From assembly GCA_041662965.1 (NCBI GenBank), contig JBAZRI010000003.1, positions 1,331 to 65,330 of the forward strand: a stretch of DNA of 64,000 nt. Reading direction: 5' to 3'. The first letter of the stretch is position 1. Each line of letters begins with the position of its first letter. Origin of the DNA: Patescibacteria group bacterium. Lineage in GTDB: Bacteria; Patescibacteriota; Patescibacteriia; Patescibacteriales; GWC2-42-12. The notes beneath the pieces were generated by a model. The model saw only the letters and a list, made by a program, of their open reading frames with translations, was not told the DNA's origin and did no database searches. The translations under genes and the position numbers were made by a program. Positions 8,178 to 64,000 of this stretch are shown here, one piece after another.

Positions 8178-8629
8178 AAATGCTTCTTAATAAACTCCTC
8201 TCCTATTTTTATCATCTTCTCCCGCTGTTTTTCCGTTTTGTCATTATAACCCAATAGATGCAACAAGCCATGCGTTAAAATAAAAATCAATTCTTTTTCC
8301 GCGCTGTTTTTAAATTGCTTAGCCTGTTTTTTAACCTGATTATAATCAATAATAATTTCTCCGAAATAATCGCCGCCGCCAATAAACGATAAAACATCAG
8401 TCGCCTTATTTAAGCCGCGATAAGTCAAATTTAATTTTTTCATTTCCGCGTCGCCGATAAAAGCCAGAGAAATTTCTTTATTTTTAATTTTATTCACCCC
8501 GTTAAATTGCTTCACACCCCGCTTTAGCGGGGATTTAACGGGGTAAACTCGGCCAAAAACGCTTATGACTTTCTTTACTAGTTTTAAATTAATTTTATAA
8601 TTAGTCTGATTATTAATTTCTATTTTCAT
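8174..8629 (-). CDS. ybeY: rRNA maturation endoribonuclease YbeY
   Basis: HGLLHLLGYND zinc motif and TDVLSF. It overlaps dgkA by 4 nt. It contains an in-frame hairpin-repeat insertion at 8496-8544. Confidence 0.88.
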   Translation of the reverse strand: MKIEINNQTNYKINLKLVKKVISVFGRVYPVKSPLKRGVKQFNGVNKIKNKEISLAFIGDAEMKKLNLTYRGLNKATDVLSFIGGGDYFGEIIIDYNQVKKQAKQFKNSAEKELIFILTHGLLHLLGYNDKTEKQREKMIKIGEEFIKKHL

Positions 8630-13300: not shown

Positions 13301-15752
13301 GCAGAGCGCAGGTTTGGAGCCTAACGAAGAAGGGGCGATTAGATTGAGCCTTTTTAACGCACTTATCAATCGCCGACCGATAGATACATAAATTAGTTTG
13401 GCAAACATTAAAATTATTACAGCTATGGTCGCAAGTACCGGTTTGACTGATTTCACCGCCGGCGTAAGTTGAACATTTTCCCGGCGAATTCGGGCAGAAA
13501 TAGCTTGAAGAGCATTGGCTTAAGCCGTAGCTTGAGCAAGCTTCGCCGTCAGTGCATTCATCATAGCCGTCATTATCCAAATCTCGGCAGCCGCCGGTTG
13601 AACAGCACTCTAAATCACCGCTACATTGATCCGGCTGATTGGGCGGACAGCTATCGCATTGGCCGGTAAGGTGATTGCATTGGTTGGGGGCGCAGCAGTT
13701 AAAGGTAACCGGACTGCCCGGCGGAGCATTAGGTATATCACATTTTTCTTGGCCGATTAAACAATCTCCGGCCACGGTGGAAAACGTCCAGCCAAAACCG
13801 CAGCCTCCGGGCGCTCCCTGGGCGCAAGTGCCGGCCGCGCGGCAGATGCCTGACCAGTAAGTTCCACCGCCGCAGCATTCTTCGCCTAATTCGCATTCGG
13901 AATTAGCCGAACACTTGCCCACGCGAAATGGCAAAGGATTGCTAAGATAGCCTTGATTATTAATTATTCTAAACGGACCATTAACCGAATCAATCGGCAC
14001 GTTATTATCAACTTTCTGATCGGTCCAACTTGTTATGGACGCGTCCTTATTATTAAAATACTGGGCGCGGCCGCTTCCCTGATTAGCGCCGAATCTTTCG
14101 CCGTTAGCGGTTACCGGCCAGCCGACCGGACCGTTATTCGGGTTTAACAGACAAAGGCCGGGATTAAGCGCCTCGTCATTAATGGTAAAATCGGCCGGCA
14201 AACTTACTTTATCGTCAGAATTAGTAACTTCAACTTTATAATCGCCTAAATTATTTACTTCCGGCACTTTAACCACGATATAAGTATTATGCCACCAATT
14301 ATTACGGCAAGGCTCGGGAAAATCAATGTCCGCGTTAATTTTATTGCTTTGATCGGCCGGTAAATAAAATTTCACCGAACTTTTTTGCGCGTTATATATT
14401 TTAAAATTACGGCCATAAATGGTTATGTACTGGCCGGCCGGGCCATTATCCGGCTCAATATAATCAATGGCCGGATTGGTATCCGCGTTATTTATTATGG
14501 TAAAAATAAGATCATTGGAATTAATGTTGTTTGTTTGGACAAAGACCGAATTCCTGCCGTCTCTGATATTAGGCACGGTGGCGTCAACCGAAGTATTGGT
14601 CCAGTTGGCAATATCATTGGCCGCTATCGGACTGGCGCTACTGCCGAAAAAAACCGAATGAGGGGAAAGGTTAAAAGCCGTGCCTTGCACGTTAAAAGCG
14701 TCAGCCAGACCGCCGCTCGCCGGATCAACTAAGCAGATGCCCGGACGGTGAATATTATTGACTGAAAAATCATTAATATGCGCGCCGCGGTTATTATCCG
14801 TGGTGTCATAATAATTTCTGCTGTCAATTACTTTAATCGGCCCGCTAACCGCTCCAGCGGGCACCACGGCGATAATTTGGTTATCTTGCCAGAAACTAGA
14901 ACATAATGGATTAACTTGATTGGGAAAACCGGCAATTTTATCGTCAGCAGGATTATTAGGATCGCCCATAAAAATTACTTGTCCGGTCGTGGTGCCGAAA
15001 TATCCGCCGCCGATGGTAATAAAATTACCAACCGCGCCGTTAGGCGTTGAAGAAGCGTCAATCGGGCTCACCCAGGCGATTAAGGGCGTTTTAATGCAAG
15101 TGCAATTATCACTGGACGAACAAACTAAATTATTGGCGCAGTCGCCGGCTTGGCAGTCGGGCAGATTAGCATCAACGTCGCAGCTCTCGCCTTCTAAAGG
15201 CTGGGTAATCCTTCTGCAGATACAATCAATGCTTGAACAATTAAAACCCGTGGCGCATCGGCCGAACGCGCAACTCATATCTTGCAAATCAGTTAAGCAA
15301 GGATCCCCTTCTCCCGGCAAACCGCCGCCGCCCGGAGGCACTACGCCTCCGCCGCCAGTGTTAGTCGTGCCGTCTCCGCCGGTAGCATTTAATAAACGAT
15401 TTAAAACAAAGCTGGCGATAGCGAACGAAGCTAAGCAAATCACCAAGCCGATAACCGCGCCGATTAATATTTTCTTGGCTTTTTCAATTTTATCCGCTTC
15501 GCCCGCGGCCGTCATCCATAGCCAGCCAGCGTAAATTATCAAGCCCACGGCGATAATGCCTAAAAAACCCAAAAATATTCTAATTATATTGGCCGCGATA
15601 ACGCGCGGGTCGTTAGCCGCGCTTAAGCCCGTGCCTTCGGCGTAGTTTAAGCCGACTTCCGGCCCGGTAGCGGCCAAAACGAAATCAGCCACAGTAAAGA
15701 TAGCTGCAAGTAAACAGATAAAAAATAATAATTTTTTTATTCTAATTTTCAT
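10389..15752 (-). CDS. giant (about 1787 aa) Cys-rich surface protein with an N-terminal TrbC/VirB2-like 'T4SS pilin' membrane domain
   Basis: N-terminus AAGPEVGLNYAEGTGLS...IIAVGLIIYAGWLWMTAAGEADKIEKAKKILIGAVIGLVI (two-helix pilin-like domain), followed by a Gly/Pro linker. Then Cys-rich modules, IPT/TIG-like segments (GNFITIGGGYFG, GQYITIYGRNFK), a long Cys-rich region, and two FN3-like repeats at the C-terminus. I trimmed the start to ATG 15752 because the codons upstream read through a repeat element. Confidence 0.8.
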   Translation of the reverse strand: MKIRIKKLLFFICLLAAIFTVADFVLAATGPEVGLNYAEGTGLSAANDPRVIAANIIRIFLGFLGIIAVGLIIYAGWLWMTAAGEADKIEKAKKILIGAVIGLVICLASFAIASFVLNRLLNATGGDGTTNTGGGGVVPPGGGGLPGEGDPCLTDLQDMSCAFGRCATGFNCSSIDCICRRITQPLEGESCDVDANLPDCQAGDCANNLVCSSSDNCTCIKTPLIAWVSPIDASSTPNGAVGNFITIGGGYFGTTTGQVIFMGDPNNPADDKIAGFPNQVNPLCSSFWQDNQIIAVVPAGAVSGPIKVIDSRNYYDTTDNNRGAHINDFSVNNIHRPGICLVDPASGGLADAFNVQGTAFNLSPHSVFFGSSASPIAANDIANWTNTSVDATVPNIRDGRNSVFVQTNNINSNDLIFTIINNADTNPAIDYIEPDNGPAGQYITIYGRNFKIYNAQKSSVKFYLPADQSNKINADIDFPEPCRNNWWHNTYIVVKVPEVNNLGDYKVEVTNSDDKVSLPADFTINDEALNPGLCLLNPNNGPVGWPVTANGERFGANQGSGRAQYFNNKDASITSWTDQKVDNNVPIDSVNGPFRIINNQGYLSNPLPFRVGKCSANSECELGEECCGGGTYWSGICRAAGTCAQGAPGGCGFGWTFSTVAGDCLIGQEKCDIPNAPPGSPVTFNCCAPNQCNHLTGQCDSCPPNQPDQCSGDLECCSTGGCRDLDNDGYDECTDGEACSSYGLSQCSSSYFCPNSPGKCSTYAGGEISQTGTCDHSCNNFNVCQTNLCIYRSAIDKCVKKAQSNRPFFVRLQTCALPKVVNYTLSGVPATATADCLAYNNQNRWIIEISTSCPAGWTSISGGRCVENNTTCSACATGFKCLKETAAAVNGVCAVEQSLCPVGSVCGNDDKCVKNDDASCECCCRIGHDSEDCCSPLKCEGECGSDITANTNTYGHCSGCASAGTTQAEHNEACNCSGTSGKFCLIDTANPSGICQDCAQISDAAVCSGLGAGACCVDAEKNNACRGGEAPYAAGLPAYNYCAYYECNTGSCSNTAVASSSSPNYKTLTECNNKCRPVAQFGNTCFSSATTTQSCDINKCVGFACINENGDGPAAPNCGTCCCDPLAAPDSCRTLNPLLTCKPNQEPCSGDKRGLCCGCSRDNECGDANAVGCGYDTCCHARPSVIETMPAGGAIDVCRNSLIKATFDQPMQISTFNGNIIVAGEYGSDQCPANTKYLTAAYKPSLLARLTSWLAGLPILNKIFINQAQALTGNFCAVSGLAGGYVTADEKTVLEFKLQKVLEANRKYYVIIKGDSDIADAMNNGVLSQAGIGLKSTNEETFNGVNFKGKIWSFTAKPNTAANNGICLVNYVNINPSGYLFTTAINDSADDNSANAAYDTIRDGDKVFRATAYYAANQPIMPIENVYNWRWDWTIDDKSVVKFKNGENALDDNPAQTLVAQNVKEANTLLHAKTTITQDEISKLSTVGQFKEKEAEIYVFLCSNPWPPFKADGSWEPWRDASVNCTVTAGGCSDANFELYYCRDTEGAGTIDDLPPILSDTTVIRGSSAEQNILKEFYFFREDTPDIASGLATTTNDAIKQGGKAGLTWQAIAVPPDQIFDKYLIYYGVKSGSYSQSISAALPGTAANPAIVGNLTNGVKYYFAVTAKYKSGAESSYSNETTAVPADVWAPQTPQGLAGTATTTKATLSWTANTDDTAIYKIYYGAESGSLGAAVNLEKNKCSAATGQCEITISNLTAGVTYYFAVSALDLKANESNKSAEINLTIL

Positions 15753-15753
15753 T

Positions 15754-16234
15754 GTCATTGCGAGCGCCATTTTTGTCATTCCCGAAGCCGCAGGCTGTCG
15801 GGAATCCAGGGGTTAAACGCATAATTAATATTTATAGCATATCAAGAAATAAATCGTACCAGGTTGGGTTGTCTTTTTCTATTAAATTTATTTTCCATTG
15901 CCGATTCCATTTTTTCAATTGTTTTTCTCTTAATATAGCGTCTTGAATATATTGATATTCTTCAAAATATATTAATTTATCAATTTTATCCCCCTCCGGG
16001 GATAAATATTTAGCCGTGAAACTTTGAGGATTTTGTTTTAATTTATGTTGAAAACTTCTATTGAATAAATCTTTGGTTACTCCGATATATAATGTGCCGT
16101 TTCTTTTGCTCGCCAGTATATAAACATAATAAATATGGGCTTTCTTAGTTGTATTATACATAGCATTCATTTCATTCGCGCCTGGATTCCCGCCTGCGCG
16201 GGAATGACAAAGAAATTGGCTTTCTCGCAATGAC
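15754..16234 (-). mobile_element. GIY-YIG ORF flanked by roughly 55 bp terminal inverted repeats
   Basis: The left end GTCATTGCGAG...GTCATTCCCG..GGGAATCCAGG (15754-15810) is the reverse complement of the right end CCTGGATTCCCGCCTGCGCGGGAATGAC...CTCGCAATGAC (16181-16234). The element fills the spacer between two surface-protein genes. Confidence 0.65.
15832..16170 (-). CDS. GIY-YIG nuclease family protein (UPF0213-like)
   Basis: YYVYILASKRNGTLYIGVT...R...H, then EKQLKKWNR. I trimmed the start to ATG 16170 because the ORF-track N-terminus translates the inverted repeat. Confidence 0.8.
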   Translation of the reverse strand: MNAMYNTTKKAHIYYVYILASKRNGTLYIGVTKDLFNRSFQHKLKQNPQSFTAKYLSPEGDKIDKLIYFEEYQYIQDAILREKQLKKWNRQWKINLIEKDNPTWYDLFLDML

Positions 16235-16243
16235 AGCTAATCC

Positions 16244-17974
16244 TTACTGGCAGCTGCTATTACTGCTCGCCGCGCCGTCGCAACAAGACGGATTGCCGTT
16301 TACCCCTAGTCCGGAACAGGGCGTATAGCAATTCTGGTAAATATCCTTAACGCCGGAATTCAACTCTACCGAATAATCAGTATTTTCATTAAACTGATCA
16401 TGATTAACTTTAGCGGTAGTTTTATTGTCGGCAAAATTATCGCTTTTGGTTATCCAATAGTTATAGCCAGCGCCCGCGCTTCTTAAATTTATGCTTGAAC
16501 TGTTTAAGGACGAGCTCATCAGCAATTTACTAAAAGTAGCTTCCGGCACGGCGGATAAATCCACTCCGCTGCCGCCGACCGGCGGGCTGATATGATCTAT
16601 TTTTGGCGGTATGATATCAATCGTATTATTAGTATTAAACAGCCAATAGTAATCATCGCCTTGGCCGTCATGGGTTTGGCTATTGGCGTTATAAGGCGGT
16701 AAAGCACTTTGCGACTCTGGCCCAACCGCCGTGCCGTCGCCATTGCCGTCAAACGAATTATCCGCCATATCAACTACGCCGTTATAGGGGAAAATGGCCG
16801 AAGCGATATCAGGGTCAAAAGCCGCGGCATTGATAAAGGCCTTAATTTGCTTATCGCCGGGCAGGCAATAAATCGTCTGGCCGCAGGAATTAACGCCGCA
16901 AGCGTCAAAAGTCAAATATTCCACGGTTTCATACTGGTTGGAAATGTAAAAAATGCCTTCAATTATAACATTGTCCGTGTTATTAAAAATCTTAATATTT
17001 TCAAAACCGCTGCCGTCTCTAAAAGCTCCGCTGGCCGAAATCGGATCAACCGCTTCGGAAAAATTTATCTGCACGACCACGTTTCTCGGCTCGGTAGCGC
17101 TGGGCTGGGGAATAATGCTCTCAACTTTCGGCGGCGTGATATCAATAAACGTGCCGACTTCAAACATCCAGTCATAAGCAATATCGCCGATGACGGAGCC
17201 AAAAGCCGGATCGCCGTTGACCTTTTTTATGTTTTTACCTAAGCCGACCGAGTACCAAATCTTTTCCGTGGGCGAACCTAAATATTGCGATGGCTTAAAA
17301 ACAAAAGTTTTATTGTCATCGGTTTTTACCGCGCTAACGTCAAAAGTAACCGCGCCGGCCACGCCGTCCACGGTTTTATAAATTTTAATATTTTGCTGAT
17401 TGATTTTATTGTCAACTATAATCGTCGCCGGATCAATCGCCTCTTTAAAAGTAACCGCGATTTTTGTGTTCCTGGGAATATCTTTTTGGTTGCGCCCGGG
17501 ATAATGGGAATTGATTATGCCTGAACCCAAAGCCGAAATTCCGCCGCCTCCGCCTCCGCCCGGAGGCACGGGAACATTGCCGCCGGCCGCGCCCGTCAGC
17601 CTATTTAAAATAAAACTTACAATGGCGAAAGCCGACAAAATAATTATTAAGCCGATAACCGCGTTTTGCAATATTTTTTTCGCTTGCGTTATTTTTTCTT
17701 CATTGCCTTCAGAAGTCATCCAAATCCAGCCGGCATACATTATTAAGCTAACGGCGATAATGCCTAAAAAGCCGATAAAAATCCTGATAATTCTGGCGAT
17801 AATTACTCTAATATCCTGGGAGTTGCTTAAGCCCGTGCCTTCGGCATAGTTTAAGCCGACTTCAGGCCCGGCCGCGGCCAAGGCGAAATTCGCCAATAAA
17901 AAAATAGCCAAGAGCATAAATAAACATATGCCGGCTATTTTATAAAGCCTATTAATTTTTTTGGTTTTTAGCAT
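16244..17974 (-). CDS. surface protein with an N-terminal T4SS-pilin-like domain, Ig-like (SbsA-type) domains and a Cys-rich C-terminus
   Basis: The N-terminus is a paralog of the giant protein (AAGPEVGLNYAEGTGLS...MYAGWIWMTSEGNEEKITQAKKIL). It has a poly-Gly/Pro linker, ITPPKVESIIP...INFSEAVDP, and ends CCDGAASSNSSCQ. Start trimmed to ATG 17974. Confidence 0.75.
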   Translation of the reverse strand: MLKTKKINRLYKIAGICLFMLLAIFLLANFALAAAGPEVGLNYAEGTGLSNSQDIRVIIARIIRIFIGFLGIIAVSLIMYAGWIWMTSEGNEEKITQAKKILQNAVIGLIIILSAFAIVSFILNRLTGAAGGNVPVPPGGGGGGGISALGSGIINSHYPGRNQKDIPRNTKIAVTFKEAIDPATIIVDNKINQQNIKIYKTVDGVAGAVTFDVSAVKTDDNKTFVFKPSQYLGSPTEKIWYSVGLGKNIKKVNGDPAFGSVIGDIAYDWMFEVGTFIDITPPKVESIIPQPSATEPRNVVVQINFSEAVDPISASGAFRDGSGFENIKIFNNTDNVIIEGIFYISNQYETVEYLTFDACGVNSCGQTIYCLPGDKQIKAFINAAAFDPDIASAIFPYNGVVDMADNSFDGNGDGTAVGPESQSALPPYNANSQTHDGQGDDYYWLFNTNNTIDIIPPKIDHISPPVGGSGVDLSAVPEATFSKLLMSSSLNSSSINLRSAGAGYNYWITKSDNFADNKTTAKVNHDQFNENTDYSVELNSGVKDIYQNCYTPCSGLGVNGNPSCCDGAASSNSSCQ

Positions 17975-18059
17975 GGAAAAAATGAATTTAAAAACTTTGA
18001 CTTTTGCACAGTCTTGTAATAATATTATAACATAAACAAAATAGCAAAAGCAAACAATC

Positions 18060-19529
18060 ATGACCATAAATCAAATCATCAACAACTTTAAGGAGAATAA
18101 CCCCAAGGCTGACCCCACTATGATCCAGCTGGCTTATGAATTCGCCGTTAAAGCCCATTCCGGGCAAAAAAGAAAAAGCGGCGAACCCTATATTCAGCAC
18201 TCTTTGCATACGGCTTTCGTTTTAGTGCAGATTAAAGCCGATATGGAAACCATAATCGCCGGCCTGCTCCATGATATTCCCGAAGATACCGAATTTACGC
18301 TGGCCGATATTGAAAAAAACTTCGGCAAAGAGATCGCTGATCTGGTGGAAGGCATAACTAAATTAAGCAAGATAAAATACCGCGGCATTGAACGCTACCG
18401 CGAAAGCTTGCGCAAAATGTTTTTAGCCATGGCGCAAGACCTAAGGGTTATTTTAATAAAATTCGCCGACCGCCTGCATAACCTAAGGACATTGGAATCT
18501 CTGCCTTTGGAAAAACGCCAGCGCATCGCCCGCGAGACTTTGGAAATTTACGCTCCAATCGCCGGACTTTTAGGCATCTGGCGGTTAAAATGGCAGATGG
18601 AAGATATCTGCTTTAAGCACCTAAACCCGGAAGAGTATAAAAAACTGGCTTATAAATTTGAGGTAGAAAAAAGGCTTGAGCATAACCAATATATTCAAAG
18701 AGTAAAAAATATGCTGGGCGCGAAACTTAAAGAAGCAAAAATTCCTTTCCATATTATCAGCCGTTTTAAGCACCTTTACAGCATTTATCTTAAACTGCAG
18801 AAAAAAGACCGGAAATTTGACGAAATTTACGATGTTTTCGCTTTGCGCGTTATCGTGCCTGACGTTGCTAATTGCTATAAAACTTTAGGCATAATTCATT
18901 CTTTGTGGCGGCCTAACCCCGGCCGGTTTAAAGATTATATCGCCGTGCCAAAGCCTAACGGCTATCGGGCTCTGCATACCACTGTCTACGGCCCGGAAGG
19001 CAAATCAACGGAATTTCAAATCAGAACCGAAGAAATGGATGACGTGGCCAAATACGGCATCGCCGCCCATTGGTCTTATAAAATGGACGGCGGCCATAAA
19101 AACGATTCAAAAAAACAGCCGGACTGGGTAAAGGAAGTTTTGCATATCCAAAAAGAAACCGCGGACACGGCTGATTTTATCAAGCAGATAAAATTTGATG
19201 TTTTCCGCGACCGGATTTTTATTTTTACGCCTAAAGGCGATGTTTTTGACTTGCCGGAAGGAGCCACGCCGATTGATTTCGCTTATTACGTCCATTCGGA
19301 TATCGGCAACCAGGCGGTCGGCGCCAGGGTCAACGATAGAATCGCCACCTTAGACCAGGAATTAAAAAATGGCGACTTGGTGGAAATAACCACGGAGAAA
19401 AAACGCCAAGGCCCGAGCCGCGACTGGCTTAAATTCGTTAAAACCGCCACGGCCAGAAATAAAATCAAGCAAAATTTAAAATCCACCATGATGGATAATA
19501 TTAAAAAATTCATACCGAAGATAAAATAG
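18060..19529 (+). CDS. rel: RelA/SpoT homolog, (p)ppGpp hydrolase + synthetase + TGS domains
   Basis: HD motif LLHDIPEDT, synthetase motifs RFKHLYSIYLKL and YRALHTTV, and TGS motif IFIFTPKGDVFDLPEGATPIDFAY. At 489 aa it has no ACT-type C-terminus. Confidence 0.92.
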   Translation: MTINQIINNFKENNPKADPTMIQLAYEFAVKAHSGQKRKSGEPYIQHSLHTAFVLVQIKADMETIIAGLLHDIPEDTEFTLADIEKNFGKEIADLVEGITKLSKIKYRGIERYRESLRKMFLAMAQDLRVILIKFADRLHNLRTLESLPLEKRQRIARETLEIYAPIAGLLGIWRLKWQMEDICFKHLNPEEYKKLAYKFEVEKRLEHNQYIQRVKNMLGAKLKEAKIPFHIISRFKHLYSIYLKLQKKDRKFDEIYDVFALRVIVPDVANCYKTLGIIHSLWRPNPGRFKDYIAVPKPNGYRALHTTVYGPEGKSTEFQIRTEEMDDVAKYGIAAHWSYKMDGGHKNDSKKQPDWVKEVLHIQKETADTADFIKQIKFDVFRDRIFIFTPKGDVFDLPEGATPIDFAYYVHSDIGNQAVGARVNDRIATLDQELKNGDLVEITTEKKRQGPSRDWLKFVKTATARNKIKQNLKSTMMDNIKKFIPKIK

Positions 19530-19654: not shown

Positions 19655-19831
19655 CTAGTAAACTAAATCCAAACTGAATAAATAATTACTGGGCATGCCT
19701 CCTCTTTGGATAAATTGCCCCCTTGTTATGCCCTTTTTTAAAACTTCGCAAATTTCTGCCGCATTTTCGTCATCTGCAGTTATTAACGTTTTTCCCTTTT
19801 CCGAAAAAAAACGTTCTTCTAAATCTCCCAT
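19655..19831 (-). CDS. small hypothetical protein (58 aa)
   Basis: ATG 19831 is preceded by AGGAGGAGG, a strong SD. An upstream TTGACA-17-TATTGT lies at about 19947-19919. A hairpin at 19611-19638 lies downstream. I recognised no motif. Confidence 0.4.
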   Translation of the reverse strand: MGDLEERFFSEKGKTLITADDENAAEICEVLKKGITRGQFIQRGGMPSNYLFSLDLVY

Positions 19832-33019: not shown

Positions 33020-33036
33020 ACACAATTAAGAAATAA

Positions 33037-33083
<47 letters not shown>

Positions 33084-33092
33084 TTTTCCCAT

Positions 33093-33329
33093 TTACCATC
33101 TTCTTCTCGGCTCTTCTTCAAGCTTGCCGATTTTCTTTAAATATTCTCTTTTTGATCTTAATTTCATGCCGACTAAAGCGCGTTTCTTTTGCTGGGTCTT
33201 ATTAATTTTCGGCTGAACATGCTGAACCTGGCGGGCCAAATATAATTTGCCGCTTTGCTGAAGTTTCTTATTGAATCTTCTTAGAAAACTCTCAAAACTT
33301 TCGCCTTTTTTTCTTTTGAATTCTGCCAT
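33093..33329 (-). CDS. rpsU: 30S ribosomal protein S21
   Basis: 78 aa, basic. ESFESFLRRFNKK and KREYLKK match the S21 pattern. Confidence 0.9.
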   Translation of the reverse strand: MAEFKRKKGESFESFLRRFNKKLQQSGKLYLARQVQHVQPKINKTQQKKRALVGMKLRSKREYLKKIGKLEEEPRRRW

Positions 33330-33371
33330 AAGTCCACCTCGCTTTCTATAATATATGTTTTTCTCTGGCTA

Positions 33372-33515
33372 GCTCCGTGAATAATGGCAAATTTTCGTGC
33401 TCGCCCCGTTAAATCCCTACGGGAGGCGAAGCCTATTTAACGGGGCGAGGACTGTTTGAGCCCGAGTAATCTCGGGCGAGTTCCGCAGTAGAAAATTTGC
33501 TGTTATTCACGGAGC
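33372..33515. repeat. nested palindromic repeat, copy B (hisS-rpsU spacer), inner CCCCGTTAAAT hairpin at 33401-33446
   Basis: Same core as copy A, GAGGACTGTTTGAGCCCGAGTAATCTCGGGCGAGTTCCGCAGTAG. Outer arms are gctccgtgaataatggcaaattttc / gaaaatttgctgttattcacggagc. Confidence 0.8.
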
Positions 33516-39489: not shown

Positions 39490-39638
39490 AAAAACCCAAA
39501 CCTCAATGACCAATAACCAAACAAATCCCAAAACAATAAACTAAACAATAAAAAATTAAAATTTGGGGCTTGTGATTTTATTGGGTATTGGGATTTGGAA
39601 ATTGGGATTTAATTATATTTCCAAAAATTAAAAATTAT

Positions 39639-40214
39639 ATGCAAATAATAGTCGGCCTGGGCAATCCGGGCGAACAATACGAGTACACCAGGCATAACGC
39701 CGGTTTCATGGCGCTTAACGTTTTAGCCGAGCGCCTCGGCCTAGTCTGGAAAACTAATAAAAAATTTAAAGCTGAAACGGCCGAAGGCCAAAACCTGATT
39801 TTAGTAAAACCGCTGGATTTCATGAATAATTCCGGCCTGCCGGTCAGCGCGGTTTTATCATATTACAAGCTGCTACCGAAAAAACTTGGCATTCTAAAAA
39901 CAAAAAATGCCGATTTATCGGAAATTTTAACCGTTATCCATGACGACTTGGATATAGAGCTCGGTAAATATAAAATTTCCCTGGACTCCCGAAGCGCCGG
40001 GCATCGGGGCGTTCAGTCTATTATTGACCAGCTTAAAACTAAAAATTTCCAGCGTATTAGAATCGGCATTAAAACACCGCCATTAGAAAAAATTCCGGCG
40101 AACTTGGCACGCAGAAACGAAGTGGAGGCGGCCAAATTCGTCCTGCAGAAATTTAATAAAGAAGAAGAAAAAACTATAAATCAATTAATTCCTAAGGCCA
40201 CTAAAAAACTATAG
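39639..40214 (+). CDS. pth: peptidyl-tRNA hydrolase
   Basis: MQIIVGLGNPGEQYEYTRHNAGF and HDDLD. Start trimmed to ATG 39639 because the track N-terminus translates a word repeat. Confidence 0.9.
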   Translation: MQIIVGLGNPGEQYEYTRHNAGFMALNVLAERLGLVWKTNKKFKAETAEGQNLILVKPLDFMNNSGLPVSAVLSYYKLLPKKLGILKTKNADLSEILTVIHDDLDIELGKYKISLDSRSAGHRGVQSIIDQLKTKNFQRIRIGIKTPPLEKIPANLARRNEVEAAKFVLQKFNKEEEKTINQLIPKATKKL

Positions 40215-40232
40215 CATTTGAACTTACTCTTG

Positions 40233-40362
40233 CGAGCCTAGAAAATTTAGTGGAATTTTTAGGCGGAAGCGAGGATAGATAATTTATTTGCTTGAGCCGT
40301 TTAGGCGAGTTATAAATTATCCCGAGTGCAGCCTAAAAATTCCCTAAATTTTCTCCAGCTCG
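40233..40362. repeat. divergent member of the nested palindromic family (copy F)
   Basis: 32 nt arms cgagcctagaaaatttagtggaatttttaggc / gcctaaaaattccctaaattttctccagctcg. The interior retains GCGAGGA...TTGAGCC..GGCGAGTT. Confidence 0.5.
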
Positions 40363-40419
40363 CGATTTTTGCGCCGCTTTATTAAAAAAGCGGCCCCGAG
40401 CGGAGCGGAAATAAAAAAA

Positions 40420-40456
40420 CGGGAGTCAGCTTATGCTGTTCCCGATTTTGTTTTTT
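40420..40456. terminator. bidirectional terminator
   Basis: Hairpin CGGGAGTCAGC-TTAT-GCTGTTCCCG flanked by A7 (40413-40419) and ATTTTGTTTTTT. Confidence 0.6.
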
Positions 40457-40753
40457 ATAATATCCACAATTCTGCCTAGAAGCCCAGGGATAACCCCGAT
40501 TTAAGGCTCCGGCTAAACCAGGAGGGAGGCTTAACTTTCACCGCTCCTAGGCAAAATTCTAAATACTATTTGTTGAGCATGTATAAAATATGTTATCATG
40601 AAAAAAGATAATTGCCAAAAATTAGATAGGTATAAAATAGCGCCCAAGATGCTACTTGCTTAGAAGGGATGCAAAATTTATAAATAATTAAGGAGGAAAA
40701 CTATTTATTAATTAGGCCCTTAAGCAAGTAACAGACTGGACGCTATAAAATTT

Positions 40754-40804
40754 ACCCCGTTAAATCCCAATCAAAGTTGGGACGCAAAGCGTATTTAACG
40801 GGGT
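40754..40804. repeat. CCCCGTTAAAT...ATTTAACGGGG hairpin element
   Basis: The 12 nt arms are identical to the copies at 2370, 8496 and 33401. The loop has its own hairpin, CCCAA-TCAAAG-TTGGG. Confidence 0.7.
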
Positions 40805-40818
40805 GAATTCAATAGATT

Positions 40819-40847
40819 ATATTATCATAACTTAAACCGTATGTCAA
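40819..40847 (-). promoter_or_regulatory. candidate minus-strand promoter in an ORF-free spacer
   Basis: On the minus strand, TTGACA (40847-40842), 17 nt, then TAATAT (40824-40819). It fires away from dprA into the structured region. Confidence 0.5.
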
Positions 40848-40888
40848 GGCTTATTTCCAATAATTCTACAGCAGACAAATTACAAAAA

Positions 40889-40918
40889 TTGGGCTAAATT
40901 TGGTAAAATTTAGCCCAA
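40889..40918. repeat. core-less mini-hairpin related to copy D of the nested palindrome
   Basis: ttgggctaaatttggtaaaatttagcccaa equals the outer arms of copy D without the core. The right flank cttcatgcaattaa is homologous to the flank of copy D, cttcatgtagttaa. Confidence 0.6.
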
Positions 40919-40945
40919 TCTTCATGCAATTAACTTAAATAATAT

Positions 40946-42037
40946 ATGAACGATCTTAAATATTGGCTGGCGCTAAGCCATTTTTATAAATTCGGCCCGG
41001 TCAAATTTAAAAAATTAAAAAACTATTTTTCTGATATTGCCAGCGCCTATAAAGCCTCGGCGAAAGATTATGTCCGCGCCGGCATTGAAGAGAAAGTGGC
41101 CGAAGAATTCATGATTTTCAAACATCAGGTTGAGCCGGATGAATTATTGGAAAATTTAAACAAAGAAAAACTAAAAGCTTTAACCATAGAAGACCCGTCT
41201 TACCCGAAACTTTTAAAGCAAATTTACGATCCGCCTTTTATTTTATATTACCGCGGCTCGCTGGAAGCTTTTAACGGTTTTCTCTTAGCCGTGGTGGGCG
41301 CCAGAAAATACAGCGCCTACGGAGCGCAAGTCACGGAAAAACTAGTCAGAGAGCTGGCTTTTAATAAATTAACCATTGTCAGCGGTCTGGCCTTAGGCAT
41401 AGACACTCTGGCCCATGCGGCCGCCATCGAAGCCGGCGGAAAAACCATCGCGGTTTTAGGCTCCGGCTTAGACCAGCAAAATATCTACCCTTCGCAAAAC
41501 CGCTATCTAGCCGATAAAATCCAAGCTCACGGCGGACTAATTTTATCAGAATATCCAATCGGCACCATGCCTTTAAAACATCACTTTCCCCAAAGAAACC
41601 GCATAATTTCCGGCTTAACGAGCGCTACTTTAGTCATTGAAGCCGGTGAAAAGTCAGGCGCTCTGATTACGGCTTTTCACGCTTTAGAGCAAAACCGGGA
41701 AGTTTTCGCCGTGCCCGGCAGTATTTATTCCGGCTCTTCGGAAGGCACTAACCGTTTAATCACTATGGGGGCTAAATTGGTAGCCGGCGCTAAAGATATT
41801 ATTGAAACTCTGAATTTAGCCGAAGCGGCCGCCTATATTGAAAACAAAAAAATAATTCCGGAAACGAACGAAGAAGAATTAATTCTCGCCCGCTTGTCTT
41901 ATGAGCCGGCGCATATTGACGAGCTTAAGCAATTGACAAAACTTGACACCTCGGTTATAAATAGTACACTTACTATCATGGAAATGAAAGGCATGGTAAA
42001 AAATTTAGGTAATATGCAATACGTGCTAGCCAGATAA
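40946..42037 (+). CDS. dprA: DNA processing protein DprA (Smf)
   Basis: GARKYSAYG, IVSGLALGIDTLAHAAAIEAGGKTIAVLGSGLD, SEYP and RNRIISGL. Confidence 0.9.
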   Translation: MNDLKYWLALSHFYKFGPVKFKKLKNYFSDIASAYKASAKDYVRAGIEEKVAEEFMIFKHQVEPDELLENLNKEKLKALTIEDPSYPKLLKQIYDPPFILYYRGSLEAFNGFLLAVVGARKYSAYGAQVTEKLVRELAFNKLTIVSGLALGIDTLAHAAAIEAGGKTIAVLGSGLDQQNIYPSQNRYLADKIQAHGGLILSEYPIGTMPLKHHFPQRNRIISGLTSATLVIEAGEKSGALITAFHALEQNREVFAVPGSIYSGSSEGTNRLITMGAKLVAGAKDIIETLNLAEAAAYIENKKIIPETNEEELILARLSYEPAHIDELKQLTKLDTSVINSTLTIMEMKGMVKNLGNMQYVLAR

Positions 42038-52010: not shown

Positions 52011-52107
52011 CTTGAGTTAAATTTAGAAAATTTTCGTGCGAGGACTGTTTGAGGCCGTGTTAAGCGGCCGAGTTCCGCAGTAGAAAATTTTCTAAATTTA
52101 ACTCAAG
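52011..52107. repeat. nested palindromic repeat, copy C
   Basis: Perfect outer arms cttgagttaaatttagaaaattttc / gaaaattttctaaatttaactcaag. The core is CGTGCGAGGACTGTTTGAG-GCCGTGTTAAGCGGCC-GAGTTCCGCAGTAG. Confidence 0.85.
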
Positions 52108-53040: not shown

Positions 53041-55935
53041 TTAAATCACAATATTAATCAGCTTCCCTTTAATAAATATTATTTTCACCACTTCTTTTCC
53101 CTCCAGCCATTTTATGATTTTTTCGCTTGCCAAAGCGATTTTTTTTGCTTCATTTTCGCTAATATCAGCCGAAACTTCAATCATATCGCGCACTTTGCCG
53201 TTTATCTGAATAACTAAATTAATAGTTTCGTCTTTAACCATCACCGGATCATATTCCGGCCATTTTTCTTTAAAAATACTTTGCTTATACCCTAACCCGG
53301 ACCACAGCTCTTCGGCCAAGTGCGGCGCGAACGGACTTAGAAGTATCAAATATAAAGTATAGTGTATTGGATATATTTTCTCTTCTTTCTCCAAAACATT
53401 AGCTAATATCATTAAAGCGCTAATTGCTGTATTAAATCTTAAATTTTCAATATCTTCAGTAACCTTTTTAATGGTTTTATTGACAATTAATTCCAACTTT
53501 TTTTCTCCTCCTTGATACTTTATACTTGATACTTTATACTGCATTTTCCAGATTTTCTCTAAAAATCTAACCTGGCCGATAATGCCTTTAGTATTCCAGG
53601 GCTTCATGTCTTCAAGCGGCCCCATAAACATTTCAAACAAGCGCAAAGCGTCGGCGCCGTACTGCTTTACCACGTCGTCAGGGTTAACCACATTACCTAG
53701 AGACTTGGACATTTTGCGGCCGTCTTCGGCTAAAATTATGCCTTGATGCCTTAATTTCTTAAACGGCTCGTCAAAATCAATATAGCCCAGATTATGCAAA
53801 ACTTTGGTAAAAAAACGGGAATAAAGCAAATGCAAAACCGTGTGTTCGGCGCCGCCGACGTATAAATCAACCGGCAGATATTTTTTTATCATGGCTTTAT
53901 CCGCGAAGGCTTTTTTATTGTTCGGGTCAGAGTAGCGGAAATAATACCAGGACGAGCAGACAAAAGTATCCATAGTATCCGCTTCCCGGCGCGCCGCGCC
54001 GCCGCACTTCGGGCATTTTACTTTATGAAAACTTTTTGATTTCATTAAAGGCGACTCGCCGGTTGGCATAAAATCCACGTCAGTCGGCAGTTTAACCGGC
54101 AAATCTTTTTCCTTGACCGCGACCTCGCCGCATTTAGCGCAATAAATTATGGGAATCGGCGCGCCCCAATAACGCTGGCGCGATACCAGCCAATCGCGGA
54201 TTTTATAATTTACTTTTTTAAAGCCGATTTTTTTCTCCTCCAGCCAGGCGGTGATTTTTTCCCTCGCTTCTTCCGAGGTTAGGCCGTTATATTCGCCTGA
54301 CTCAACTAAAATTCCGTCATCGCAGTAAGCAAAATCGCCGTGAAAATATTTTTTCCAGGCGAATTGCTGATTTTCAACGTTAATAAAAGATTCAATCTCA
54401 TTCTCCGGAATCCAAACTGCTTCATGCCTATCTTTCTCATTTTGATCAACAATCTCTTTTTCTTCATTCTCTAAATCAAAAATAAGATAATAAAAATGCG
54501 CGATTACATTTGAGCCTTTATGCGGCCTATAAAATTCGGCGTAGGTGGAGCCAGGAATTTGTTTTACGAATTTTAAATTTTTGTAGCCGGTCTCTTCTTT
54601 AATTTCTCTTAGCGCGGCGCCAACCAAGCCTCCTCCGTCAATCCCGCCGGTCGGAAAAGATTGCCAGCCGGTTATGCTCCATTTTAGGCAAAGATATTTA
54701 TTATCTTTCGGATTCTTTACGATAGCGCAAACTACTTCGCGTTTTTCCGTCTCCTTATCGGCTTTCGCCGGATTTTTTTGATCCAGCCAATAAGGAACAA
54801 TAACATTTTTTATCGGCAAATTATATTTCTTGGCGAATTCAAAATCACGCTCATCATGCGCCGGCACGGCCATAACCGCGCCGGTGCCGTAATGGGCTAA
54901 AACATAATCGGCCGCGAAAACCGGAATAGTTTCATTATTAAAAGGATTGATTAATTCCACGCCCTCTAGCTTAACGCCGGTTTTTTCTTTAGTATCGGCC
55001 ATTCTCTGCAGTTCGGTTTTCTTTTTAGCCTGGTTAATATATTCTTCCACTTCCGGCCAATTAGTAATTTGATTTTTTAGATCCTGAATCAACTTATGCT
55101 CCGGAGCTATCACGGCATAAGTCATACCGAAGACCGTATCTAAACGAGTCGTATAAACTCTAATTCGTAATTCGCAATTCGTAATTCGCAATTCAAATTC
55201 CGCGCCAGCGGATTTGCCGATCCAATTTTTCTGCGCCGCTTTAGTTGATTCCGGCCAGTCAACTTTATCAAGACCGTCTAGCAAGCCCGAGGTAATGCGT
55301 TTCTCGGCCTCCGTAGCTTTAGCGAAGGACGGCTCTATAAAATCGGTAATCTTAAAAAACCATTGCTCCAGATCTTTTTGACTCACCGGGTTTTTACAGC
55401 GGTCGCAAACTCCGCCCTCGGCCTGCTCATTAGCCAAAACCGTGTGGCACTTACCACACCAATTCACCTTGGCCTTATTTTTATAAGCCAAGCCGTTTCT
55501 GTATAGCAAAAGAAAAAACCATTGCGTCCATTTATAATAATCCGGATCGGAAGAATTCACTTCTCTGGACCAATCATAAGAAAAGCCCATCATCTTCATC
55601 TGCTTGGTGAAATTCTCAATGGCTTTTTCAGTGGTGATTTTAGGATGGGTTTTCGTCTTAACCGCGTAATTTTCCGCCGGCAGGCCGAAAGCATCCCAGC
55701 CCTGCGGATGCAAAACGTTTTTGCCTTTCATCCTTAAATAGCGCGATATAATATCCGTCGCCGTGTAGCTTTCTACGTGGCCGGCGTGCAGTCCGTTAGA
55801 CGACGGATAAGGGAACATATCCAAAATATATTGTTTGTCCGCCCGGCTTTTATCGTCGGCCTGAAAAAGCTTCGGCTGTTTAGCCCAAAATTTTTGCCAT
55901 TTGGCTTCTATTTTTTTGTGATCATACTTTTCCAT
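53041..55935 (-). CDS. leuS: leucyl-tRNA synthetase with an inserted Nudix-like domain
   Basis: HAGH (HIGH), KMSKS, editing-domain edges TTRLDTVFGMTYAVIAPEH and YGTGAVMAVPAHDERDFEFAKKY, and RDWLVSRQRYWGAPIPI. At 964 aa it is longer than the roughly 800-880 aa I recall as typical. Confidence 0.95.
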   Translation of the reverse strand: MEKYDHKKIEAKWQKFWAKQPKLFQADDKSRADKQYILDMFPYPSSNGLHAGHVESYTATDIISRYLRMKGKNVLHPQGWDAFGLPAENYAVKTKTHPKITTEKAIENFTKQMKMMGFSYDWSREVNSSDPDYYKWTQWFFLLLYRNGLAYKNKAKVNWCGKCHTVLANEQAEGGVCDRCKNPVSQKDLEQWFFKITDFIEPSFAKATEAEKRITSGLLDGLDKVDWPESTKAAQKNWIGKSAGAEFELRITNCELRIRVYTTRLDTVFGMTYAVIAPEHKLIQDLKNQITNWPEVEEYINQAKKKTELQRMADTKEKTGVKLEGVELINPFNNETIPVFAADYVLAHYGTGAVMAVPAHDERDFEFAKKYNLPIKNVIVPYWLDQKNPAKADKETEKREVVCAIVKNPKDNKYLCLKWSITGWQSFPTGGIDGGGLVGAALREIKEETGYKNLKFVKQIPGSTYAEFYRPHKGSNVIAHFYYLIFDLENEEKEIVDQNEKDRHEAVWIPENEIESFINVENQQFAWKKYFHGDFAYCDDGILVESGEYNGLTSEEAREKITAWLEEKKIGFKKVNYKIRDWLVSRQRYWGAPIPIIYCAKCGEVAVKEKDLPVKLPTDVDFMPTGESPLMKSKSFHKVKCPKCGGAARREADTMDTFVCSSWYYFRYSDPNNKKAFADKAMIKKYLPVDLYVGGAEHTVLHLLYSRFFTKVLHNLGYIDFDEPFKKLRHQGIILAEDGRKMSKSLGNVVNPDDVVKQYGADALRLFEMFMGPLEDMKPWNTKGIIGQVRFLEKIWKMQYKVSSIKYQGGEKKLELIVNKTIKKVTEDIENLRFNTAISALMILANVLEKEEKIYPIHYTLYLILLSPFAPHLAEELWSGLGYKQSIFKEKWPEYDPVMVKDETINLVIQINGKVRDMIEVSADISENEAKKIALASEKIIKWLEGKEVVKIIFIKGKLINIVI

Positions 55936-56447: not shown

Positions 56448-56546
56448 GCTTGGGCTAAATTTGGTAAAATTTTCGTACGAGGACTGTTTGAGGCAGCGTA
56501 GCTAGCCGAGTTCCGCAGTAGAAAATTTTATAAATTTAGCCCAAGC
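56448..56546. repeat. nested palindromic repeat, copy D
   Basis: gcttgggctaaatttggtaaaattttcgtacGAGGACTGTTTGAGgcagcgtagctagcCGAGTTCCGCAGTAGaaaattttataaatttagcccaagc. Confidence 0.85.
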
Positions 56547-56642
56547 TTCATGTAGTTAATAATTTTATAAAAGCAGGCTTAATCCGGATAAAGGACTAAG
56601 CCTGCTTGAAATATAAGCGGAGATTATCCGGCTCTCGCAACC

Positions 56643-63918: not shown

Positions 63919-64000
63919 GCTTGGGCTAGTCATTTTTCGAAGCGAGGACTGCCTGCCTGCCGGCAGGCAGGTTTGAGCCCGAGTAATCTCGGACGAGTTC
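63919..64000. repeat. nested palindromic repeat, copy E (cut by the window edge), carrying a CCTGCCTGCCGGCAGGCAGG insert
   Basis: gcttgggctagtcatttttcgaagcGAGGACTG[cctgcctgccggcaggcagg]TTTGAGCCCGAGTAATCTCGGACGAGTTC. Confidence 0.75.

Follow-up and report, generated by a model that had tools for sequence, protein, structure and literature searches.

The spacer between the pth and dprA genes of this Patescibacteria group bacterium raises the question of what is encoded by a stretch of DNA that is rich in hairpins and poor in open reading frames (ORFs). The initial annotation of the window (the whole stretch of 64,000 nt analyzed here) described it as a single minus-strand unit of about 400 nt with three hairpins, and proposed either a structured noncoding RNA (ncRNA), trans-acting or a scaffold, or an accumulation of palindromic repeats, with an Infernal/Rfam scan and a search for homologs and covariation as checks. 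To judge from the sequence and its conservation among relatives, a minus-strand structured ncRNA locus is very probably real; the proposed ORF-free RNA locus is backed by DNA identity, covariation, strand-specific G-U pairs and a conserved promoter. The unit, however, is two modules rather than one three-hairpin RNA, and the remaining hairpin is a genome-specific repeat. On the minus strand of the spacer the two conserved structured modules follow each other with module B first and module A second, among the following features.

39588-40214, plus strand: pth (peptidyl-tRNA hydrolase; Pfam PF01195 on the called gene), convergent with the RNA genes
40413-40444, minus strand: intrinsic terminator, a bulged stem (40420-40444) followed by a U7 run (40413-40419), seen in the sequence and in the fold
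40457-40569, minus strand: module A, a three-way junction with a closing helix P1 (~24 bp), a short helix P2 and hairpins P3 and P4
40520-40527, minus strand: loop of the P3 hairpin of module A, UCCCUCCU, resembling the anti-Shine-Dalgarno (anti-SD) sequence
40590-40618, minus strand: promoter-like site P2 in the linker between A and B, TTGGCA, 17 nt, TAACAT, with a TG extension, found by scan
40637-40746, minus strand: module B, an irregular hairpin 110 nt long, with AUAGCG...CGCUAU as the closing stem and a U-run behind it
40688-40700, minus strand: apical loop of module B, UUUUCCUCCUUAA, with the anti-SD-like CCUCCUU at 40690-40696
40753-40805, no strand assigned: a member of the palindromic CCCCGTTAAAT repeat family that interrupts the 5' leader of module B and lies outside the conserved RNA
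40819-40847, minus strand: promoter P1, TTGACA, 17 nt, TG-n-TAATAT, found by the consensus scan, with a predicted transcription start at ~40812
40880-40927, no strand assigned: hairpin located between the start of dprA and promoter P1, outside the RNA unit; it is what remains, without the core, of a dispersed palindromic element
40946-42037, plus strand: dprA (Pfam PF02481 and PF17782 on the gene), divergent from promoter P1

Related loci were recovered together with dprA (n = 80). Modules A and B are kept in more than 40 species-level genomes and in ~47 metagenome contigs, and the order pth, A, B, dprA was found at every genome locus that was informative and in ~47 of the 51 hits in metagenomes. 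The conserved stretch comprises positions 40452-40750 only; its DNA identity to species-level relatives is 72-94%, compared with 58-76% for the Pth protein. The RNA ranges from Falkowbacteria to Uhrbacteria-like and Buchananbacteria-like lineages, a class-level group in which DprA identity falls to 53%, and the distant lineages carry a single RNA copy. The covariance models built for the two modules (R1 for A, R2 for B) detected no second copy of either in the 64-kb window. The locus is vertically inherited and single-copy in Falkowbacteria and related Patescibacteria, and the synteny of pth and dprA is kept well beyond the lineages that possess the RNA.

The structure of both modules is supported by covariation. 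In the alignment of module A (A1; 25 sequences, 38 pairs) 95.0% of the cells are paired and 29 pairs show a compensatory change, and RNAalifold predicts 38 pairs, 29 of them with compensatory changes. The corresponding values for module B (A2; 23 sequences, 40 pairs) are 92.6% and 27 pairs, with 26 pairs predicted by RNAalifold, of which 17 show compensatory changes. Shuffled controls reach 85% paired cells for A and 84% for B, slid controls 38-52% and 37-48%, and none of 500 shuffles matched the observed value of either module. Read on the minus strand, G-U cells far exceed A-C cells in both modules (140:16 in A and 92:10 in B), and the RNA strand is therefore the minus strand. The restriction of G-U pairs to this strand, noted earlier for two of the hairpins, holds in the window and across the 25 homologs of A and the 23 of B. 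The models score accordingly, R1 giving 132 bits on the minus strand versus 41.5 on the plus strand, and R2 129.8 versus 59. The 421-nt minus-strand fold has an energy of -142.2 kcal/mol (z = -9.9), and the plus strand -129.2 kcal/mol (z = -6.6). The three hairpins listed in the initial annotation do fold as described, but the one at 40468-40558 proves to be part of the three-way junction of module A, which has 2 nt on its 3' side. All internal loops of module B are small.

Each model also matches the other module weakly (R1 on B modules at 20-35 bits, R2 on A modules at 23-41 bits), and A and B are therefore probably sibling sRNAs encoded by paralogous sequences, although a common shape together with a common motif could also produce such matches. 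That common motif lies in the loops. The CCUCCUU of the module B loop is present in 23 of 23 homologs and unpaired in all single-sequence folds; the anti-SD-like CCUCC attributed to the apical loop of the middle hairpin is present there. Among A-family loops, CCCUCCU occurs in 35 of 36 and CCUCC in all 36, the distant Uhrbacteria-like and Buchananbacteria-like loci included, and the CCCUCCU of module A is unpaired in the consensus and in single-sequence folds. An AGGAG in helix P1 of module A seemed a promising internal partner for the loop in close relatives; it is replaced, with covariation, in the distant members, and we rejected it.

Promoter-like sites are as frequent in the consensus scan as chance predicts (5 found, 5.4 expected), and promoter P1 is not significant by itself; it becomes so because it is conserved among relatives. 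Of 38 loci, 36 have a promoter of the TTGACA-17-TAtAAT type ahead of the RNA; the pattern TTGAC-N15-19-TAnnnT was found upstream of the module, on the RNA strand, in 27 of 28 loci with B or a B-like module and in 9 of 10 with a single A-like one, versus 2.3% of background windows. The TTGACA-17-TAATAT promoter first reported at 40847-40819 is thus present, carries a TG extension and is conserved. Most close relatives have a promoter-like site for each module. Site P2 appears as TTGACA/TTGGCA-17-TAACAT in seven of them (L002-L005 and L007-L009), and loci further removed still have a -10-like TAnCAT; we infer from these sequences that P2 acts as a promoter for module A. The linker between the modules varies from 4 to 219 nt. 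P2 is missing in L010, whose linker measures 4 nt, and only the -10-like element is retained in L012, so that module A is not always independently transcribed.

The hairpin and U-run terminator of the initial annotation is present downstream of module A, and the consensus scan missed it because of a bulge in its stem. Being bidirectional, it ends pth as well. Canonical terminators occupy the same place in 15 of 36 relatives, and in many others a U-run follows helix P1 directly; the transcripts are predicted to end at a separate terminator or else at the U-runs that come after the closing helices. It is on such sequence signals that we judge whether the unit is independently transcribed, where the RNAs end and whether one or two transcripts are made.

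No protein product is suggested for the unit. Its longest ORFs, one of 38 aa on the minus strand that starts with TTG and one of 36 aa on the plus strand, agree with the earlier statement that none reaches 60 aa; across homologs the longest start-to-stop ORF drops to 7-8 aa, and no ORF is conserved. A small protein from a 21-codon GTG ORF inside module A was rejected, as L002 lacks its start codon and none of the frames stays open among the homologs. So was a plus-strand mini-ORF that follows AAGGAGG in some relatives (ATG-CCC-TTA-AGC-AAG-TAA), whose ATG, 17 nt from the SD, is AGG in the window.

The proposed Infernal/Rfam scan matched no family. A search with the 4227 covariance models of Rfam 15 gave no gathering-level match in the window or in 16 related loci, and a permissive scan (E up to 10) of positions 40150-41000 and one distant homolog yielded nothing beyond chance matches of hairpins to models of miRNAs and sRNAs, at 10-25 bits versus thresholds of 37-230. 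ARAGORN found no tRNA or tmRNA in the window, and a literature search found no description of an RNA made of modules A and B. The family appears to be new. A riboswitch or other cis-regulatory leader was rejected, as no constant gene follows the modules on the RNA strand, where one finds unrelated ORFs, tRNA genes, or a terminator with antisense pth behind it. The modules share with base-pairing sRNAs of the C/U-rich-loop type predicted promoter and terminator signals, the lack of an ORF and a C/U-rich motif in unpaired loops.

The best explanation overall, to which we give about an even chance, is a tandem of probably paralogous ncRNA genes whose products pair in trans with SD-like sites. In each RNA the two ends pair to form a long helix and one short hairpin displays the anti-SD-like loop; a near-consensus sigma-70 promoter, kept in nearly all relatives, lies ahead of B or, in single-copy lineages, of the lone RNA. 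The exposed C/U-rich loops could pair in trans with purine-rich sites of the GGAGG type. The likeliest such sites would be the ribosome-binding sites on the small number of mRNAs that retain an SD in an SD-poor genome, and this pairing would block or tune translation of the target mRNAs; the long covarying helices would give stability and present the loops. The SD-pairing mechanism in trans, taken for itself, is proposed tentatively from the loop sequences, with a probability that we put just short of even.

An SD-like motif precedes 4 of the 51 genes in the window. By a crude ORF call, loci with the RNA have an SD rate of 8% and loci without it one of 13%, which does not discriminate between them. 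GGAGG occurs 53 times in the window against an expectation of 64 and so shows no enrichment, none of the neighboring genes der, pth, dprA and topA has an SD, and no pairing target for the loops stands out within these 64 kb. The ORFs that follow module A on the RNA strand in some relatives have no Pfam match; where one of them carries an SD of the GGAGG type, this SD is complementary to the loop: AGGAGGG in L008, GGAGGG in L003 and L007, and AGGAGG in L009, L018 and L026. These cases represent only about three independent events.

Several known RNAs resemble the proposed pair. LhrC1-5 of Listeria monocytogenes are related sRNA genes of ~100 nt, partly in tandem and each with its own promoter and terminator, which are confined to one genus; their C/U-rich UCCC loop motifs pair with AG-rich SD regions in the mRNAs they target. 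Likewise, modules A and B are probable siblings in tandem with C/U-rich loops, for which such pairing is proposed. Unlike LhrC, they possess covarying closing helices (24-bp in A) and a full CCUCCU anti-SD, have a class-level spread in Patescibacteria and reside in an SD-poor genome, and they show neither sequence nor covariance-model similarity to it. RsaE/RoxS and the streptococcal csRNAs (CcnA-E) occlude ribosome-binding sites with C-rich, anti-SD-like unpaired motifs that are repeated within the RNA or among siblings, as the loop motif is between A and B; here the structures are a three-way junction and a 110-nt hairpin in another host phylum, without homology. Since the Rfam search was negative, the resemblance to LhrC, RsaE/RoxS and the csRNAs is that of a functional class only. 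In the CsrB/RsmZ sponge RNAs, which also occur as sibling copies, a GGA motif repeated in hairpin loops is bound by CsrA. The modules share with these a short invariant loop motif on a structural RNA with sibling copies, whereas GGA lies here on the wrong strand and each RNA has a single loop. The 3' tail of 16S rRNA (anti-SD, ...CACCUCCUU...) has the identical CCUCC core, and the loops of A and B should recognize the same GGAGG partners by sequence complementarity; in contrast to that tail with its free 3' end, the motif is held here in the closed loops of hairpins in small separate RNAs, and no SSU rRNA match was found.

This likeness to the ribosome underlies the strongest rival to SD pairing, which is possible but doubtful. 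The RNAs would be protein-binding or ribosome-associated decoys or scaffolds whose CCUCC loops mimic the 16S 3' tail. Rather than pair with mRNAs, they would serve to titrate, or to deliver, a factor recognizing the anti-SD, such as a KH-domain protein, a platform ribosomal protein or a factor for 16S maturation. Deep conservation extends to the whole structure, beyond the loop alone, and the B loops of L019 and L026 are CACCUCCUU, the same as the 16S 3' end. Conservation of such depth with covarying 24-bp helices is rare among ordinary base-pairing sRNAs, and its persistence down to 53% DprA identity fits a decoy or scaffold at least as well. A near-consensus promoter is expected of an abundant housekeeping RNA, and one motif in two loops is expected of sponge RNAs, though the distant lineages have one loop rather than two. 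Few mRNA targets are available because the genome is SD-poor, and the 16S anti-SD motif was detected in only 48% of Parcubacteria (PMC9297842). Against this, no candidate protein is linked to the locus, and the neighbors on the RNA strand differ. A cis-acting element is much less likely. It would act by antisense or transcription interference against read-through from pth to dprA, or as a device tied to the divergent dprA promoter, with a structure that matters for stability only. The constant place between a convergent pth and a divergent dprA and the bidirectional terminator at 40413-40444 agree with it. However, the synteny of the two genes also occurs without the RNA, for example in Magasanikbacteria with a gap of 6-150 nt, so that the position of the RNA may merely reflect conserved gene order; in L046 and L042 the RNA sits 0.8-3.7 kb from dprA; and an invariant loop with covarying helices is unexpected for mere interference.

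The remaining readings are very improbable. That the RNAs are a divergent form of 6S, SRP 4.5S, RNase P RNA or tmRNA missed by standard models is suggested by their single copy, strong promoter, length of 110-150 nt, long closing helix and class-level conservation, yet it is hardly to be expected, as the Rfam scans, both at gathering level and at E up to 10, were empty of such matches in the window and in distant homologs. SRP RNA has a helix 8 with a GNRA tetraloop and conserved symmetric and asymmetric loops that bind Ffh, whereas no GNRA-capped helix is seen here and the apical loops are C/U-rich and 8-13 nt long. RNase P RNA has a conserved P4 pseudoknot core and a length of ~330-400 nt, in contrast to two modules of about 110 nt each, split by a variable linker, in which inspection found no P4 or core motifs. 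6S RNA (~180 nt) forms a long helix from both ends and sometimes has two paralogs (6S-1 and 6S-2 in Bacillus). The modules are likewise small, abundant-looking and end-paired, and there are two of them, but they lack the large two-sided central bubble and the upstream arm. A tmRNA, which combines a tRNA-like domain with a reading frame for a tag peptide, would conflict with the ARAGORN result. We regard as highly improbable a plus-strand element, in which the 3'UTR of pth or the 5'UTR of dprA would show AGGAGG loops as a CsrA-like site or a ribosome stand-by site. The plus-strand loops do read AAGGAGGAAAA and CAGGAGGGAGG with dprA downstream, and that strand folds well too (z = -6.6), but 82% of its cells pair versus 95% on the minus strand, 232 G-U cells turn into C-A, the covariance models score the minus strand 70-90 bits higher, the conserved promoters, like many of the terminators, are oriented in the minus direction, and no start codon follows the SD-like sequences.

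Almost no credence is left for a region devoid of RNA function in which palindromic DNA repeats of the REP or MITE type have piled up. The hairpin at 40754-40804 was rightly assigned to the CCCCGTTAAAT family, which has further copies at 2365-2420, 33397-33452 and 8517-8547, and the repeat has no counterpart at the same position in any relative examined. The hairpin at 40880-40927 shares 23 identical nt with 56450-56472, and a full copy of the element occupies its place in L091. Both are members or remnants of dispersed palindromic families, and the repeat alternative of the initial annotation is correct for them. It probably applies as well to a window-specific hairpin of 135 nt at 40230-40365, of which no copy was found in any sequence searched. 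It is refuted for modules A and B, which are single-copy, syntenic, orthologous across genomes and vertically inherited, with strand-specific G-U covariation and a conserved promoter. The dispersed GGACUGUUUGAG element was also considered as a known ribozyme and rejected; it has no Rfam match, and its core is hammerhead-like but departs from the hammerhead consensus.

Patescibacteria (CPR) account for a large part of bacterial diversity and have tiny genomes and unusual ribosomes; to our knowledge, almost nothing has been reported on their regulatory RNA. Models R1 and R2 could be used for metagenome annotation, and the locus of pth, RNA and dprA is a handy marker. The invariant feature of the RNAs is an anti-SD sequence, in genomes with an SD on only ~8% of genes, which opens a testable question about the role of SD and anti-SD in SD-poor bacteria and about its regulation by RNA. 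It is also conceivable, if unlikely on the sequence evidence, that small stable RNAs carry the anti-SD off the ribosome in these SD-poor Patescibacteria, either mimicking the 16S tail or serving as decoys by which the few SD-bearing mRNAs (an "SD regulon") are kept from ribosomes. We know of no bacterium in which translational control by off-ribosome anti-SD RNAs has been described. If true, such RNAs would provide global control of an SD regulon or would engage the ribosome or factors that bind the anti-SD, which would be of particular interest should the 16S rRNA in these lineages lack or hide an anti-SD of its own.

The minus-strand unit at 40412-40848, which the initial annotation proposed as a structured ncRNA of about 400 nt, lies between pth and dprA, in a gene neighbourhood with der upstream and topA downstream of this region. 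The window itself is part of an 85.8-kb metagenome contig (ENA ERZ27249449). The 731-nt pth-dprA spacer contains no ORF of at least 60 aa, as had been claimed for the unit. The 421-nt unit folds at -142.2 kcal/mol on the minus strand (z = -9.9 versus shuffled sequence) and at -129.2 kcal/mol on the plus strand (z = -6.6), and the whole-spacer folds give -259.8 versus -234.4 kcal/mol. The other elements are present as well, namely the promoter TTGACA-17-TAATAT (40847-40819, minus strand), the terminator (bulged stem 40420-40444, then U7 at 40413-40419), the apical loop at 40688-40700 and all three hairpins. The original observation is therefore confirmed. A single promoter match in this window is at chance level (5 sites versus 5.4 expected). 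The main features of the locus are as follows.

ends at 40214, plus strand, pth (peptidyl-tRNA hydrolase), flanking the RNA locus
40457-40569, minus strand, module A, three-way junction
40637-40746, minus strand, module B, 110-nt hairpin interrupted by small internal loops, apical loop UUUUCCUCCUUAA
starts at 40946, plus strand, dprA, flanking the RNA locus

Related loci were collected by a DprA query of species-representative genomes, yielding 80 loci, the nearest of which belong to Candidatus Falkowbacteria and other Patescibacteria. By blastn against this set, only 40452-40750 of the spacer is conserved (72-94% identity), always directly upstream of dprA, and the neighbouring Pth protein is just 58-76% identical in the same genomes. 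The hairpins 40753-40805 and 40880-40927 and everything from 40215 to ~40450 are missing from the relatives. Two blocks, modules A and B, make up the conserved stretch; the linker between them is variable, ranging from 4 nt in locus L010 to 219 nt in L003, where it contains an insertion. Profile and covariance-model searches recovered both blocks in the same order across Falkowbacteria-like genomes. In metagenome contigs, a pattern scan returned 51 matches, ~47 of them true members, with the order pth, A, B, dprA in every informative one. No second copy of either module was detected by the covariance models in the 64-kb window or the 9-kb loci. At ~53-57% DprA identity, in lineages labelled Uhrbacteria, Buchananbacteria and unnamed Patescibacteria, there is just one RNA; it is A-like, has a longer P4 hairpin and comes with a promoter and terminator of its own. 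In two loci the only RNA is B-like, and Magasanikbacteria-type loci have a pth-dprA gap of 6-150 nt without the RNA. The covariance model of each module weakly matches the other (20-41 bits), and both share AUAG...CUAU ends, a long closing helix and a CCUCC loop, all of which suggests an ancient paralogy between A and B.

Module A comprises a ~24-bp closing helix (P1), a 3-bp P2, a 7-bp hairpin (P3) whose loop is UCCCUCCU, and the short hairpin P4. Compensatory pairs were found in both modules. In the MAFFT alignment of 25 module A sequences, 95.0% of cells are paired, compared to 85.0% in shuffles and 38-52% in slid controls, with two-sided changes in 29 of 38 pairs; none of 500 shuffles attained the observed values. 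For module B (23 sequences), pairing is 92.6% versus 84.0% in shuffles and 37-48% in slid controls, and 27 of 40 pairs are compensatory. The paired columns contain 140 G-U versus 16 A-C cells in A and 92 versus 10 in B, reading the plus strand drops pairing from 95% to 82%, and the covariance models score ~130 bits for the minus and 40-60 bits for the plus strand. The G-U excess and the score difference agree with the earlier strand assignment and indicate that the RNA is encoded on the minus strand of the window.

A promoter of the type TTGAC-N15-19-TAnnnT, with a background frequency of 2.3% of windows, precedes B on the RNA strand in 27 of 28 loci, usually as TTGACA-17-TGnTAtAAT and at a distance between a few and a few tens of nucleotides. 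In 9 of 10 more distant loci it also precedes the A-like RNA that occurs there alone. In the window, the palindromic repeat 40753-40805 has been inserted between this promoter and module B. Most close relatives have a second promoter-like site within the linker (TTGACA/TTGGCA-17-TAACAT; in the window at 40618-40590), which L010 lacks. A U4-U7 run follows the closing helix of B in most species. Module A has a canonical terminator behind it in 15 of 36 loci, and many of the remaining loci have a U-run immediately 3' of P1. Most simply, these signals can be read as two sRNA genes in tandem, with a degree of read-through. No reading frame is conserved across the homologues, the longest start-to-stop ORF shrinking to 7-8 codons. 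A leader or riboswitch was rejected, because the RNA-strand sequence 3' of A differs between genomes, being a terminator, tRNA-like sequences or unrelated ORFs. The tRNA-like sequences, recognized by eye, lie on the same strand immediately 3' of A in L015, L023 and L024, which suggests co-transcription with, or processing beside, a tRNA in some lineages. Four loci (L003, L007, L008, L009) have a conserved ~100-aa minus-strand ORF just downstream of A, without a Pfam match and preceded by GGGGAGGG, GAGGAGGG or GAGGAGGA.

Of the 36 A family members, 35 contain CCCUCCU and all contain CCUCC; CCUCCUU occurs in 23 of 23 B members. This motif, the anti-Shine-Dalgarno (anti-SD) core, is unpaired in all folds. 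An AGGAG in P1 of A is able to pair with it in close relatives. This AGGAG is substituted with compensation in distant members, so no conserved partner exists within the RNA, and the loops appear to be available to an external one. The genome makes very little use of SD sequences: an SD-like motif at the right distance precedes only 4 of 51 genes of the window, whose leaders are AT-rich, and a crude count in related loci gives 8-13%. The 16S anti-SD motif was detected in only 48% of Parcubacteria in one survey (PMC9297842). Exceptions to the scarcity of SDs in the window include two minus-strand small ORFs: an apparent one ending near 33330, preceded by GAGGUGG and by eye possibly rpsU, and one near 19820, preceded by GGAGGAGG. 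Some ORFs following A on the RNA strand carry GGAGG-type SDs complementary to the loop: AGGAGGG (exactly complementary to the loop of module A) in L008, GGAGGG in L003 and L007, and AGGAGG in L009, L018 and L026, representing only about three independent events.

The window also contains two families of palindromic elements.

2365-2420, 33397-33452, 8517-8547 and 40753-40805, copies of the CCCCGTTAAAT...ATTTAACGGGG hairpin family
2338-2484, ~33380-33515, 52011-52107, 56450-56547 and 63920-64000 (cut by the window end), same strand, copies of a dispersed structured element
L091 4292-4327, copy of the dispersed element in a close metagenomic relative

The copies at 2365 and 33397 are mutually reverse-complementary (95%), thus the CCCCGTTAAAT hairpin exists in both orientations; it is also nested in two copies of the dispersed element. 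The latter folds strongly (z = -9.5), matches no Rfam family, and combines a conserved core, CGAGGACUGUUUGAG-[variable hairpin]-CGAGUUCCGCAGUAG, with a long outer stem of copy-specific sequence and preserved complementarity. The few G-T wobbles of this stem speak for the plus strand, antisense to the flanking window genes. A nearly perfect ~135-nt hairpin immediately 3' of the pth stop codon (40230-40365), missing in all relatives and without a further copy in the window, is probably another inserted palindromic element. The heptamer repeat (ACTTTAT)n occurs at 33030-33098 and 53496-53564, the latter at least overlapping a long minus-strand ORF. Two large adjacent minus-strand genes (10389-15779 and 16244-18067) share ~300 nt near their 5' ends (15399-15704 and 17603-17908; 71-85% identity), which points to a duplicated N-terminal module.

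The initial annotation had offered an accumulation of palindromic repeats as the alternative to an RNA gene. This holds for two hairpins, both absent in relatives and repeat-related: 40753-40805 belongs to the CCCCGTTAAAT family, and 40880-40927, just upstream of dprA, is identical over 23 bases to part of the dispersed element's outer stem (56450-56472). L091 has a complete dispersed element at the matching position, and we regard 40880-40927 as its core-less remnant. For the rest of the locus the repeat explanation fails, with direct evidence against it.

Direct evidence likewise stands against cis interference, against a plus-strand UTR element and against a disguised housekeeping RNA; no Rfam 15 family matches the window, one distant homologue or 16 related loci, and ARAGORN found nothing. 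Comparative analysis establishes a conserved non-coding locus on the minus strand that is structured, bears a promoter and exposes invariant CCUCC loops. Through these loops the RNAs would act in trans, their partners most likely being ribosome-binding sites of the GGAGG type in the few mRNAs that carry an SD. LhrC, RsaE/RoxS and the csRNAs act by pairing of C/U-rich loops with ribosome-binding sites; the proposed action is similar. There is no homology to these RNAs, given the negative Rfam result. The main rival to mRNA pairing is a protein- or ribosome-binding decoy imitating the 16S 3' tail, with which the unusually deep helix conservation agrees at least as well. No description of this RNA was found in the literature searched. 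We have high confidence that the RNA gene is real, and rate it as a new ncRNA family; its general kind, sibling sRNAs with anti-SD-like loops, is known, and its setting is unusual.
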